Part shown: piece by piece, positions 3,679-10,339 of the stretch
Numbering within the stretch: position 1 is the stretch's first letter
Layout: each line of letters begins with the position of its first letter
DNA from: Escherichia coli
Lineage (GTDB): Bacteria; Pseudomonadota; Gammaproteobacteria; Enterobacterales; Enterobacteriaceae
Direction: 5' to 3' (one strand)
Length of the DNA: 64,000 bases
Assembly: GCF_013122565.1 (NCBI RefSeq)
Contig: NZ_CP053258.1
Notes under the pieces: generated by a model
Seen by the model: the letters and a program-made list of their open reading frames with translations, nothing else
What the model was told of the DNA's origin: nothing
The model's database searches: none
Made by a program: the position numbers and the translations under genes

Positions 3679-3927
3679 GGCCTTTCCTTATAGCCGGTCA
3701 GTGCATTCACCACCACAAGCAGATAATAACTTTATCTGTATTTCTTTATATGATGTGAGCATATTCAGGAAAAATGACCTTTCCTGAGGTACAGTTGCTC
3801 GCTCAAAACCTTTGATTACTGCGGATAAAGTCATCTACTATTGTTTAACACATTCACGCGCTGCATGTATGTTCGGAAAATGTGCACGCTAAGATAATTA
3901 AACAAAATTGTGGTTACAGAGGTATCA

Positions 3928-5181
3928 GTGAGTCACTGGGCTACATTCAAACAAACAGCAACAAATTTATGGGTGACCCTACGGCACGACATGCTCGCGC
4001 TGGCCGTCTTTTTAAATGGATTGCTTATTTTTAAAACAATCTATGGTATGTCGGTCAATTTGCTTGATATTTTCCATATTAAAGCATTTTCAGAGCTGGA
4101 TCTCTCCTTGCTGGCAAACGCCCCACTATTTATGCTCGGCGTATTTCTTGTCCTGAACTCCATTGGCTTACTGTTCCGGGCAAAGCTCGCATGGGCAATC
4201 AGTATCATTTTGTTGTTGATAGCGCTAATTTACACCCTGCATTTTTATCCGTGGCTGAAATTCAGTATTGGATTTTGCATTTTTACGCTGGTGTTTTTGC
4301 TGATACTGCGCAAAGACTTCTCCCACAGTAGCGCCGCAGCCGGGACAATTTTCGCATTTATTAGTTTCACGACGTTACTGTTTTACTCCACCTACGGTGC
4401 GCTTTATTTAAGCGAAGGTTTTAATCCGCGAATAGAAAGTTTGATGACCGCGTTCTATTTTTCAATAGAAACCATGTCAACCGTCGGCTATGGCGATATT
4501 GTCCCTGTTTCTGAGTCAGCACGATTGTTCACTATTTCGGTCATTATTTCCGGCATTACCGTTTTTGCCACCTCTATGACCTCAATTTTTGGTCCGCTTA
4601 TCCGCGGGGGATTCAACAAACTTGTAAAAGGAAACAATCATACAATGCATCGTAAAGATCATTTTATTGTTTGCGGGCATTCGATTCTCGCCATCAATAC
4701 GATTCTGCAACTGAATCAACGCGGACAAAACGTAACGGTTATCAGCAACTTGCCTGAAGATGATATCAAGCAACTTGAGCAACGCTTAGGCGATAACGCT
4801 GATGTTATCCCCGGTGACAGTAATGACAGTTCAGTATTAAAGAAAGCGGGAATCGATCGTTGCCGGGCCATTCTGGCGCTGAGTGATAACGATGCAGATA
4901 ACGCGTTTGTTGTACTCTCGGCAAAAGATATGAGCAGTGATGTTAAAACAGTTCTCGCCGTCAGTGATAGCAAAAACCTGAATAAGATTAAGATGGTACA
5001 TCCGGATATCATTCTCTCACCGCAACTGTTTGGCAGCGAAATTCTGGCGCGAGTTTTAAATGGTGAAGAGATTAATAATGATATGCTCGTTTCAATGTTG
5101 TTGAACTCCGGTCATGGCATTTTCAGCGATAACGATGAACAAGAAACGAAAGCTGACAGTAAAGAATCGGCGCAAAAATAG
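3928..5181 (+). CDS. kch: Kch potassium channel homologue (417 aa, GTG start; track ORF begins at 3910)
   Basis: TM core with pore signature TVGYGD and C-terminal RCK/TrkA-like domain; sequence recognised as Kch. Confidence 0.93.
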   Translation: MSHWATFKQTATNLWVTLRHDMLALAVFLNGLLIFKTIYGMSVNLLDIFHIKAFSELDLSLLANAPLFMLGVFLVLNSIGLLFRAKLAWAISIILLLIALIYTLHFYPWLKFSIGFCIFTLVFLLILRKDFSHSSAAAGTIFAFISFTTLLFYSTYGALYLSEGFNPRIESLMTAFYFSIETMSTVGYGDIVPVSESARLFTISVIISGITVFATSMTSIFGPLIRGGFNKLVKGNNHTMHRKDHFIVCGHSILAINTILQLNQRGQNVTVISNLPEDDIKQLEQRLGDNADVIPGDSNDSSVLKKAGIDRCRAILALSDNDADNAFVVLSAKDMSSDVKTVLAVSDSKNLNKIKMVHPDIILSPQLFGSEILARVLNGEEINNDMLVSMLLNSGHGIFSDNDEQETKADSKESAQK

Positions 5182-5551: not shown

Positions 5552-7376
<1,825 letters not shown>

Positions 7377-7405
7377 CGCTTGCAATCGGATGTGACGCAG
7401 CTGCG

Positions 7406-8275
7406 TCACATCCGCTCTTCATTTTCCACATCTACCTTTTCCCTCCCCAGTTCATTGCCACAAATACGACAATACTTCGCATCCTGTGCATGATTTTGGG
7501 TATTGCATTTAGGACAACAGAGAAGTTTTTTAGTCTGTTCAAGTTCGCTGGTGAGTTGCGCAGTAATAATCCCCGTCGGAATTGCAATGACTGAGTAGCC
7601 AATTAAGATTAATACTGAGGCCACCATCCTTCCTGCCTCTGTATGCGGCGTAATATCCCCATATCCAACGGTAGTCACAGTCACTATCGCCCAGTAAACC
7701 GCTGTACCCAACGAGTTAAATCCGTTTGATGCGCCTTCTATAGCGTACATTAACGCCCCAGCGACGATCATCACAATTGCAATAAATGCATAAAAAAGAA
7801 TCAACTGATGTCGGGCATTTTTTATCGCCCGCCATAAACTGTTTAAGGCAGGCATAAAGCGAAGCAGGCGCAAAATTCGCAACGCGCGAATAGCTCTCAT
7901 CGCTCGCCAGGCAAATAAATAAGTAAAACCAATTTCAGGCCATAGCCACATAACATACAGCGGCAAAATGGTGGTCAGATCGATAATTCCCCAAAAGCTA
8001 AAAACATAACTTACCGGATTCGGCCAGCTTAATATCCGCAGGAAATACTCGATGGTGAAAATTAAGGTAAAGAAGAGTTCCACCCAGACAAAGATATGCC
8101 ATTCGTCGTAGGTTAACTGAAATTGCGATCCAATACCGGATTCTATGAAAACAACGCCAACACTTAACAATGCGAGAAAACCAAACAGCGCCTCGCATCG
8201 TCTACCGGTTTTTGTATGCCGATCAAAAAGAAAATGATAAAACCGCTGACGATAGCCTGAAAGTTGTCCTGTCAC
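7406..8275 (-). CDS. Kv-type voltage-gated potassium channel (6 TM, charged S4, TVGYGD pore) with C-terminal zinc-ribbon tail
   Basis: 289-aa ORF; S4 motif RAMRAIRALRILRLLR with R every third residue; selectivity filter TVGYGD; C-terminal CPKC-x12-CRIC; GGGAGG SD 5 nt upstream of GTG start. Confidence 0.8.
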   Translation of the reverse strand: MTGQLSGYRQRFYHFLFDRHTKTGRRCEALFGFLALLSVGVVFIESGIGSQFQLTYDEWHIFVWVELFFTLIFTIEYFLRILSWPNPVSYVFSFWGIIDLTTILPLYVMWLWPEIGFTYLFAWRAMRAIRALRILRLLRFMPALNSLWRAIKNARHQLILFYAFIAIVMIVAGALMYAIEGASNGFNSLGTAVYWAIVTVTTVGYGDITPHTEAGRMVASVLILIGYSVIAIPTGIITAQLTSELEQTKKLLCCPKCNTQNHAQDAKYCRICGNELGREKVDVENEERM

Positions 8276-8290
8276 CTGCGCCTCCCATGA

Positions 8291-8317
8291 AAAAGGGCCG
8301 GCAATTGACCAGCCCTT
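8291..8317 (-). terminator. Rho-independent terminator of the opp operon
   Basis: On minus strand GGGCUGG-ucaauug-CCGGCCC stem-loop followed by UUUUU, beginning 8 nt after the oppF stop. Confidence 0.7.
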
Positions 8318-8324
8318 AACCGCT

Positions 8325-9329
8325 TTATAACGGATCGACTTTCAGGCAAGAAACGGCGTGTCTGAAACTCCCCTCCAGCACAGGACGTGTTTTGGCACAC
8401 TCCGGACCGGCAATCGGGCAACGGGTACGGAAAACACAACCGGAAGGCGGGTTGATCGGCGACGGTAATTCCCCTTCCAGTAACTGGATGGTTTTGTTCT
8501 TCTCCAGATCCGGATCAGGTATGGGGACTGCCGACATCAATGCCCGGGTGTAAGGATGTAGTGGATTGTGGTAGACCTCATCATAGGTCCCCAGTTCTAC
8601 CGCATGGCCGAGATACATCACTAACACACGATCGGAAATGTGTTTTACCACGGCCAGGTCGTGAGCGATAAAAATTAATGACAATCCCATCTCACGTTGC
8701 AACTGCTGGAGCAGGTTGACCACCTGCGCCTGAATTGACACGTCCAGCGCCGACACCGGCTCATCACAGATAATCAGCTTCGGTTCAAGAATAAGAGCAC
8801 GAGCAATCCCGATACGCTGGCACTGCCCACCGGAAAATTCATGCGGATAGCGGTTAATCAGGTTAGGCAATAACCCGACTTTCAGCATCATCGCCTTCAC
8901 GCGCTCGCGAACTTCCTGGCGTGACATTTTCGGATGATAGGTACGCAGCGGTTCAGCGATAATCTCACCGATGGTCATACGCGGGTTTAGTGATGCTAAC
9001 GGATCCTGGAAAATCATCTGAATATCACTGCGAACGGCACGCCATTCATCGGGCTTCATGCCCAGCAACTCTTTACCTAACCAAGCAACATGACCGTCGG
9101 TCGCCTTGACCAAACCGATGATGGCGCGAGCAAAGGTGGACTTACCGCATCCCGATTCCCCTACCACACCTAATGTTTCCCCTTCATACAGGCGAAGAGT
9201 GACACCATCGACGGCTTTGAGCGTTTTCGGCGGTTGCCAGAACCACTGCTTGCCATCTTTGATTTCAAAGTGCACTTTTAGATCGGCGATTTCGAGGAGG
9301 ACTTTTCTTCCTTCGGTTACAGCATTCAT
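8325..9329 (-). CDS. oppF: Oligopeptide ABC transporter ATP-binding protein OppF
   Basis: 334-aa ORF with Walker A GESGCGKST and ABC signature LSGGQCQR. Confidence 0.96.
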   Translation of the reverse strand: MNAVTEGRKVLLEIADLKVHFEIKDGKQWFWQPPKTLKAVDGVTLRLYEGETLGVVGESGCGKSTFARAIIGLVKATDGHVAWLGKELLGMKPDEWRAVRSDIQMIFQDPLASLNPRMTIGEIIAEPLRTYHPKMSRQEVRERVKAMMLKVGLLPNLINRYPHEFSGGQCQRIGIARALILEPKLIICDEPVSALDVSIQAQVVNLLQQLQREMGLSLIFIAHDLAVVKHISDRVLVMYLGHAVELGTYDEVYHNPLHPYTRALMSAVPIPDPDLEKNKTIQLLEGELPSPINPPSGCVFRTRCPIAGPECAKTRPVLEGSFRHAVSCLKVDPL

Positions 9330-10339
9330 AACAGTTCCTCCACCGGTTTAAAGCAAGCACGCAGACGGCCAGGCGTAAACTCTTCCAGTGGCGGTGCGCT
9401 ACTACAAATTTCCATCGCATGTGGACAACGTGGCTGGAACGGGCAACCTTTCGGTAATCGCAGCAAGTTTGGTGGATTACCCGGGATGGTCAACATTGTT
9501 TCACCTTCCGCATCGAGACGCGGCACCGCGTTGAGCAAACCGATAGAATAAGGATGAACGGGTTGATAAAAGACATCGCGCGCGTTGCCATATTCCATCG
9601 TGCGCCCGGCATACATTACCAGCACTTTGTCGCAGATCCCCGCCACCACGCCAAGATCGTGGGTGATCATTATGATGGCGGTATTAAATTCCCGCTTCAG
9701 TTCATTCAATAGCGTCATGATCTGCGCCTGTACGGTGACGTCCAGCGCAGTAGTGGGTTCATCCGCAATCAGCAGCTTAGGTCGACATAGCAATGCCATC
9801 GCAATCATGACTCGCTGACGCATGCCGCCAGAAAATTCGTGCGGGTACATTTTCATGCGTTTACGCGCTTCCGGCATTTTTACCGCATCGAGCATCCGCA
9901 CCGACTCTTCAAACGCCTCAGCTTTGCTCATGTTCTTATGCAGCATCAGCACTTCCATTAACTGCTCACCGACACGCATATAGGGATTCAACGAAGTCAT
10001 TGGGTCCTGAAAAATCATTGAGATTTGTTCAGCGCGCAGTTTATTGAGTTCATGCTCTGGCAAATTGAGGATTTCACGCCCATTGAAGGTTGCCGAACCG
10101 CCAATACGTCCGTTGGCAGCCAACAGGCCCATCAACGCAAATGCAGTTTGCGATTTACCCGAACCAGACTCACCTACAATGCCCAACGTTTCTCCGGCTC
10201 GTAGGGAAAAATTCAAATCATTGACCGCCGTGACGTCGCCGTCCGGGGTACTAAAGGTGACACGCAAATCTTTCACGTTCAGCAGTGCGTCAGCCTGTTG
10301 TTGTGCGAGCGGCACAGTTGCAGTTTCAATTACGCTCAT
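9326..10339 (-). CDS. oppD: Oligopeptide ABC transporter ATP-binding protein OppD
   Basis: 337-aa ORF with Walker A GESGSGKSQ and ABC signature FSGGMRQR; 4-bp overlap with oppF. Confidence 0.96.
   Translation of the reverse strand: MSVIETATVPLAQQQADALLNVKDLRVTFSTPDGDVTAVNDLNFSLRAGETLGIVGESGSGKSQTAFALMGLLAANGRIGGSATFNGREILNLPEHELNKLRAEQISMIFQDPMTSLNPYMRVGEQLMEVLMLHKNMSKAEAFEESVRMLDAVKMPEARKRMKMYPHEFSGGMRQRVMIAMALLCRPKLLIADEPTTALDVTVQAQIMTLLNELKREFNTAIIMITHDLGVVAGICDKVLVMYAGRTMEYGNARDVFYQPVHPYSIGLLNAVPRLDAEGETMLTIPGNPPNLLRLPKGCPFQPRCPHAMEICSSAPPLEEFTPGRLRACFKPVEELL

Follow-up and report, generated by a model that had tools for sequence, protein, structure and literature searches.

The 49 nt that follow oppF in this Escherichia coli strain hold the probable intrinsic terminator of oppABCDF and, directly after it, the ribosome-binding site of an ancestral enterobacterial Kv-type channel gene. 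We consider it most likely that polymerases reading through this terminator make the channel mRNA, the gene thereby being an attenuated sixth member of the opp transcription unit. In the window, as we call the whole 64,000-nt stretch of E. coli DNA that was analysed, oppA–F run from 13956 down to 8325, and they and the channel gene all lie on the minus strand (Table 1). An earlier note on this DNA had put the gap between the oppF stop codon and the channel GTG at 49 bp, and the coordinates of the two codons bear this out, the spacer being exactly 49 nt long (8276–8324). It had further described the spacer as a hairpin and a U-run followed by GGGAGG 5 nt before the GTG. All of these elements are present, and the minus strand reads AGCGGTT-AAGGGCTGGT-CAATT-GCCGGCCCTT-TTTCAT-GGGAGG-CGCAG-GTG.

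Table 1. Features of the opp–channel locus in the window, with strand and basis of each assignment
Feature	Position	Strand	Basis or remark
kch, genuine	3910-5181	+	PT62 annotation; 3 kb from channel gene
yciU, convergent with channel gene	7047..7376	+	PT62 annotation
Segment of ~0.9 kb absent from typical E. coli	7386..8287	.	Three-way alignment
Perfect 12-bp palindromic hairpin across channel stop codon (TGA 7408-7406), between convergent yciU and channel genes	7387..7414	.	Plus-strand terminator-like call; sequence
Channel ORF, 289 codons	7406..8275	-	
Channel start codon GTG	8273-8275	-	Same start annotated in PT62
Shine–Dalgarno GGGAGG, 5 nt ahead of GTG	8281..8286	-	Sequence
U-run TTTTT, then CAT	8290..8294	-	Sequence
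Probable opp intrinsic-terminator hairpin AAGGGCTGGT/CAATT/GCCGGCCCTT (GC core 8295-8315)	8293..8317	-	Folding; covariation; homologous hairpin in typical E. coli
TATAAA, -10-like: last Leu codon (tTA), TAA stop and next base	8324..8329	-	Final T missing
oppF stop codon TAA	8327-8325	-	
oppF, last gene of oppABCDF	8325..9329	-	ORF list and translation; annotated oppF in 99.8%-identical E. coli PT62 record
TTTCTT at -35 position, 18-nt spacer to stop-codon hexamer	8348..8353	-	Orthologues TTTCCT; 3/6 bases match TTGACA

The channel ORF is a genuine gene for a Kv-type six-transmembrane K+ channel of 289 amino acids with a C-terminal zinc ribbon. The protein matched Pfam Ion_trans (PF00520) with E = 9.5e-32 (110.5 bits against a cut-off of 25) and Ion_trans_2 with E = 4.9e-18, together with a weak match to Zn_Ribbon_1, and its closest solved structures were those of the eukaryotic channels Kv4, Kv1 and Kv2 (~1e-23). 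A TVGYGD filter and an S4-like RAIRALRILRLLR segment can be recognised in the translation, which ends in a zinc ribbon of the form CxxC...CxxC. Both Kch and the archaeal MVP family were ruled out, since the scores for the two NCBIfam equivalogs were far under their cut-offs (51.4 bits against 425 for PRK10537 and 60.5 against 300 for NF040645 respectively). The GTG is found at the aligned position in essentially all of the short-spacer orthologues, and the translation has no in-frame ATG ahead of approximately codon 109. Two other start codons were tried and rejected: the ATG at 8288–8286 belongs to another frame than the GTG, and a start at the earliest in-frame TTG (approximately codon 35) would cut into transmembrane segment S1, the first one.

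Several side observations were made on the gene and its neighbourhood. This strain has both K+ channel genes, typical E. coli has kch only and Salmonella enterica has the oppF-adjacent one only. The window ORF encodes 289 amino acids and the 99.8%-identical PT62 gene is annotated with 283, a difference (7406–7426) that comes from a single G/T change, GAA in the window to TAA in PT62, just past the zinc ribbon. The channel gene is markedly more AT-rich than oppF (G+C of 43.9% against 52.0%, and of 43.6% against 56.3% at third positions), and this gap is wider in the present strain than in other genera. The palindrome across the channel stop codon, CGGATGTGACGC/AGCT/GCGTCACATCCG, is terminator-like for yciU on the plus strand and has no U-run after it on the minus strand; a weak, sub-threshold Rfam match to naRNA4 (REP-type, E = 0.099) at 7314–7417 overlaps it.

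The flanks of the locus in the window are 95–99% identical to 5420 E. coli records, and the channel gene itself was found in only three of 5426 complete E. coli genomes (PT62, LP5-1 and ET201), each time 99.8% identical to the window. PT62 and LP5-1 came from pigeon and ET201 from frog. In typical E. coli the oppF–yciU spacer is 48 nt long and holds a homologous hairpin, GGGCTGACAGTTGTCAGCCC, then TTTTTCA, and then a clean deletion of ~0.9 kb. When one genome per species was scanned, orthologues of the channel with 59–92% identity were detected in ~80 Enterobacteriaceae species, among them members of Klebsiella, Enterobacter, Citrobacter, Kluyvera, Raoultella and Lelliottia, as well as Salmonella arizonae and diarizonae and E. 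albertii; Salmonella enterica subsp. enterica also has the channel, with a 47-nt spacer, and is without kch. The position was always between oppF and the convergent yciU. Because the other genera hold the gene at this place, the channel is ancestral and was deleted in mainstream E. coli; the arrangement is thus not the local oddity for which the earlier note had taken it. A foreign insertion into E. coli was considered and rejected, as the same position is occupied in all of the other genera examined. The three exceptional genomes with an extra 'ion transporter' are explained by an ancestral gene that was kept or regained by recombination. As a separate observation, the last oppF codons and the hairpin of the window are nearer to those of a cryptic-clade-like lineage (L005) than to those of typical E. 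coli, which hints at a recombination tract.

Comparison of coding sequences gave a dN/dS of 0.085 for the channel against its nearest Escherichia homologue (92% identical) and of 0.083 against E. albertii, with ~0.01 for oppF as a comparison. These values indicate that the channel gene is under purifying selection, which implies that the channel must presumably be expressed. A different reading is that the gene is effectively silent in this lineage, a relic behind an efficient terminator and heading for the deletion that is fixed in typical E. coli. Its deletion in 5423 of the 5426 complete genomes is consistent with such a fate, as are the degraded stop-codon hexamer of all Escherichia lineages (see below), the low G+C content (43.9% compared with 52% for oppF) and the difference in the C-terminus between the window (289 amino acids) and PT62 (283 amino acids). 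However, the two dN/dS values argue against a silent gene; furthermore, the reading frame, the selectivity filter, the S4 arginine residues and all four zinc-ribbon cysteine residues are intact, and the Shine–Dalgarno sequence, rather than having decayed, is stronger here than in other genera. We therefore regard silence of the channel as very improbable.

The junction between oppF and the channel gene was then compared across the Enterobacteriaceae. The same layout of TAA, hairpin, T-run, GAGG and GTG, with a spacer of 40–52 nt, was present in 74 of the 79 loci compared, including those of Klebsiella, Enterobacter, Citrobacter, Salmonella, Kluyvera, Raoultella, E. albertii and others. Within these 74 loci the hairpin starts 6 nt past the oppF stop codon in 62, its stem is 8–9 bp long in 70 and its loop has 3–5 nt. 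The T-rich run has at least six T among its first eight bases in 65 loci and is broken after two T in 40. GAGG lies 5 nt from the GTG in 54 loci, and the longer GGGAGG is confined to the three channel-bearing Escherichia lineages. The remaining five species (L064, L070, L071, L077 and L078) have a spacer of 111–301 nt between oppF and the channel gene; folding of these spacers gave a hairpin before the Shine–Dalgarno sequence that was robust in L077 and L078, weak in L070 and L071, and absent from L064. Long-spacer loci contain an extra hairpin after oppF, and L064, which has no hairpin, carries a promoter-like TTATCC-15-TATACT 28 nt before the GTG. Their sequences suggest that some of the long-spacer lineages may have given the channel an independent promoter.

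The hairpin of the window is made of two arms (8317–8308 and 8302–8293) that form 10 bp, eight of them in the GC core and six of them G-C pairs, around a loop of 5 nt. RNA folding of the window sequence returned it as both the minimum-energy and the centroid structure, and the free energy of its core is −13.6 kcal/mol. Taken as a single sequence it folds only modestly better than shuffled sequences (z = −2.1 and −1.4), yet it is far beyond chance because of its covariation across 71 orthologous sequences: the helix is 93.7% paired, compensatory changes occur at five pairs, and the covariation score and the number of double changes were reached by none of 500 shuffles. The consensus scanner, which requires at least five T in eight bases, did not call the window hairpin a terminator, the AA/UU-extended stem leaving T at four of the next eight bases. 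The same scanner called the orthologous hairpins of Klebsiella and Salmonella terminators; these two terminators have eight U in Klebsiella and UUCUUUUAGG in Salmonella. In the window the stem starts 7–9 nt past the oppF stop codon. An Rfam search of 7200–8800 at a permissive threshold returned no family for the hairpin, and its two sub-threshold matches, naRNA4 (E = 0.099) and K_chan_RES (E = 0.1), were taken as chance.

An outer helix between TCGC, after the stop codon, and GCGA, before GAGG, was also considered (alignment columns 25–32 with 70–73, approximately 8318–8324 with 8276–8280 of the window). It was rejected as too weak, with 84.8% paired compared with 81.3% in shuffles; its inner two pairs are broken in approximately one-quarter of the sequences, and some compensatory changes were seen (CG in 32 and UA in nine). 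Such a helix would be possible only in read-through transcripts, not in those starting at the hairpin foot.

Is there a promoter that could serve the channel alone? According to the earlier note, no −35/−10 pair can fit into the spacer. This is right, and we judge from the letters that the channel in the window lacks a credible promoter. A consensus scan of 7000–9400 detected no minus-strand sigma-70 site, and over the 500 nt ahead of the window GTG the best score of a rough position-weight scan was 5.8 bits, the 99.9th percentile of the opp coding background, with approximately the number of hits expected by chance. Inspection of the spacer by eye gave no sigma-54 or sigma-E motif. The locus has the features of an operon member: the channel lies on the opp strand, the spacer is 49 nt long and there is no promoter-like site above chance between the two genes. 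One could still suppose an unrecognised promoter further upstream, in oppD or oppF, a promoter that is not of the sigma-70 type, or RNase processing of the opp transcript. The scans covered sigma-70 consensus models only, which leaves some place for such a promoter, and in K. pneumoniae the Hfq-bound fragments described below (1816 compared with 1472) point to abundant RNA ends or binding at the junction. However, synonymous variation is free throughout the last 110 codons of oppF outside two patches, no start site was mapped within oppB–oppF in Klebsiella, and processing would still need read-through of the terminator. This group of explanations appears very unlikely to us.

The statement that no −35/−10 pair can fit holds for the spacer only. 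Of 72 distinct orthologous sequences, 69 have a perfect TATAAT lying across the end of oppF, where the last leucine codon (TTA or CTA) and TAA are followed by T. In all 69 of the non-Escherichia short-spacer species, which are related and therefore not independent events, oppF ends in GAC CCG YTA followed by TAA and T. The final leucine codon is thus TTA or CTA in 69/69, compared with 8.5% of leucine codons elsewhere in the same genes. Among the 294 three-codon windows of oppF, GAC CCG YTA shows the strongest synonymous constraint, and codons 326–328 (GTT TCC TGY), which contain TTTCCT at an 18-nt spacer from the hexamer, rank third. The codons between these two patches vary freely, and synonymous divergence between the genera is saturated (dS > 2). 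When the orthologues were scanned, this one fixed position reached 9.9 bits, more than any of 28,005 background positions, whose maximum was 9.3 bits. A broken link to the channel goes with loss of the hexamer, which is TTTAAA in typical E. coli and missing from four of the five long-spacer loci. It is lost as well in all three channel-bearing Escherichia lineages, as TATAAA in the window and L005 and as TGTAAT in E. albertii. The conserved pattern looks like that of a promoter whose transcript would start at the hairpin foot.

These results raise the alternative of a dedicated channel promoter, with a −10 element (cGyTATAAT) over the end of oppF, a weak −35 element (TTTCCT, 18-nt spacer) inside oppF and a start at the hairpin foot, an explanation that we consider unlikely. 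On that view the hairpin would serve both as the 3′ end of the opp mRNA and as a 5′ stem–loop or attenuator of the channel mRNA. The invariant GAC CCG YTA-TAA-T, its first rank in constraint and the third rank of the −35 patch at saturated dS all favour such a promoter, as do the score above the background maximum and the loss of the hexamer where the link to the channel is broken; moreover, the three Escherichia lineages without the box are the only ones with GGGAGG. Against it, the −35 element matches the consensus at three of six bases and was not called by the scanner in the window, Klebsiella or Salmonella, its transcripts would meet the terminator approximately 30 nt after initiation, and no start has been mapped in K. 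pneumoniae or S. Typhimurium despite a perfect box in both. The window itself lacks the critical last T, and its −10 and −35 both fall short of the sigma-70 consensus; its site scored 2.7 bits, which is background level, compared with 9.9 bits in the orthologues. Since its box is TATAAA, a promoter here would be weak or dead, and the stronger Shine–Dalgarno sequence might compensate. Across the whole family the stop-codon promoter has to be taken seriously as a rival; in the window it is unlikely to be active. The box in 69 of the 72 orthologous sequences, which in the window is TATAAA, corresponds to the earlier note's other suggestion, a promoter inside the 3′ end of oppF.

Published data from orthologous loci bear on both explanations. 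In K. pneumoniae MGH 78578, dRNA-seq of cells grown in LB to OD 0.25 and 2.0 gave ~3,750 start sites (PMC10907235), none of which lies on either strand between 2399155 (yciU) and 2405051 (inside oppA) (PMC10907235 Dataset S1). There oppD occupies 2401456–2402469, which places the oppF stop codon near 2400455 and the predicted start near 2400447; the channel is KPN_RS11810. In S. Typhimurium SL1344 no start site is listed for the channel (STM1741, SL1344_1672), and the rows for the oppA start sites give the operon as 'SL1344_1677-1672', i.e. oppABCDF plus the channel, a call that is largely a DOOR prediction with dRNA-seq support (PMC3963941). The Klebsiella start-site data of Kim et al. 2012 gave no rows in this region, oppA included, and so say nothing on the channel. 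Start-site maps miss many weakly expressed genes, and an absent start site is therefore weak negative evidence. The missing starts may also be technical: ligation is poor when the 5′ end sits at the foot of a GC hairpin, and terminated products of 30 nt would be lost in size selection.

Hfq RIL-seq in K. pneumoniae assigned 1816 single fragments to 'KPN_RS11810 5UTR', compared with 1472 for the whole oppF coding sequence (PMC10907235). This region, which is that of the oppF terminator (L015; NC_009648.1 ~2400406–2400555), also gave 86 chimeric fragments with one partner (PMC10907235). The pile-up of fragments fits a terminator 3′ end that binds Hfq, and by analogy with OppZ of Vibrio the 3′ end of opp may have a role as an RNA that Hfq binds.

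Taken together, the lack of a credible promoter in the window, the lack of mapped start sites in the two other species, the listing of the channel as a sixth gene in Salmonella and the hairpin close to the stop codon make read-through from opp, the first of the two alternatives in the earlier note, the best explanation. We propose that a fraction of the RNA polymerases would pass a leaky opp terminator. The leakiness would come from a U-run of only five, two of which are able to pair with AA at the stem foot, and from the position of the stem, 7–9 nt past the oppF stop codon, where a terminating ribosome could cover the left arm while the polymerase crosses the U-run. The terminator scan, passed by the Klebsiella and Salmonella hairpins and failed by that of the window, likewise speaks for a weak terminator here. 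Such an effect is known from the terminator tR2 in vivo, which was almost fully repressed at 8–9 bp from a stop codon and reached an efficiency of ~0.9 only beyond 30 bp (PMC4824070); the effect was sequence-dependent, with an efficiency of ~0.8 at 18 bp compared with ~0.12 at 17 bp (PMC4824070). The read-through RNA would then be translated from the strong Shine–Dalgarno sequence GGGAGG, at a spacing of 5 nt, and the GTG start codon. We infer that read-through occurs to some extent and that the ribosome has a part in it, and also that the channel is coupled to peptide transport; its expected level would be low and would rise and fall with opp transcription and translation. On the other hand, the same hairpin with a TTTTTCA tail ends the operon in typical E. 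coli and so may terminate efficiently, which speaks against read-through.

The invariant TATAAT in the other genera suggests, in addition, that read-through alone was not the ancestral solution. A tentative scenario for the family, possible and no firmer than that, is that in most Enterobacteriaceae the last sense codon and the stop codon of oppF were recruited as a −10 element (cGyTATAAT) which, with the constrained −35 patch in oppF, would form a private channel promoter firing into the terminator foot. One hairpin would then be the 3′ end of the opp mRNA and a 5′ stem–loop or attenuator of the channel mRNA; in Escherichia the box would have decayed by two routes, to TATAAA and to TGTAAT, the Shine–Dalgarno sequence would have become stronger, and E. 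coli would later have deleted the gene.

A literature search found no paper that mentions the channel by locus tag. Klebsiella, Enterobacter, Citrobacter and Salmonella all have the channel as a core gene; its absence from E. coli K-12 explains why it has escaped study. Its conserved placement in ~70 species offers a testable account of how a potentially toxic ion channel might be held at a low level and linked to the uptake of peptides. The TATAAT that overlies the stop codon illustrates cleanly how regulation constrains the choice of synonymous codons and of the stop codon, and it cautions that 'no room for a promoter' should not be read from the spacer alone.

The kind of arrangement seen here is well known, with dnaG behind T1 and rpoBC behind an attenuator, whereas this instance and the degree of its conservation appear to be undescribed. 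In the rpsU-dnaG-rpoD operon of E. coli, the internal terminator T1 lies before dnaG, which is thought to be transcribed by partial read-through; dnaG is also held low by a weak ribosome-binding site, and read-through of T1 has been measured. The channel resembles dnaG as a low-copy gene directly behind an intrinsic terminator in or at the end of a strong operon. It differs from dnaG in that its Shine–Dalgarno sequence is strong (GGGAGG) with only the GTG suboptimal, and in that we infer its read-through. In rplKAJL-rpoBC, a partial terminator between rplL and rpoB sets the ratio of upstream to downstream genes. Similarly, a partial terminator behind oppF would set a gene ratio within one transcription unit. 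However, the rplL–rpoB attenuator lies in a long intercistronic region between functionally linked genes, and the channel is unrelated to peptide transport.

OppZ is an sRNA from the oppF 3′ UTR of Vibrio cholerae. As with OppZ, an opp 3′ end with a terminator hairpin binds Hfq, judging from the pile-up of RIL-seq fragments at the K. pneumoniae junction. Unlike in OppZ, the enterobacterial 3′ UTR is ~40 nt long and essentially the hairpin alone, with no evident seed or processing site and no Rfam match. With respect to the tR2 series, the distance from stop codon to hairpin, 7–9 nt here and 6 nt in 62 of the 74 orthologous loci, falls into the range in which that terminator was almost fully repressed (PMC4824070); the effect there depended on sequence, and a ribosome effect on the opp terminator is proposed by analogy. 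Finally, the channel protein is like Kch, KvAP and MVP in its six-transmembrane layout, arginine-rich S4 and TVGYGD pore; it belongs to neither Kch nor the MVP family, has no RCK domain and carries the C-terminal CxxC...CxxC zinc ribbon.
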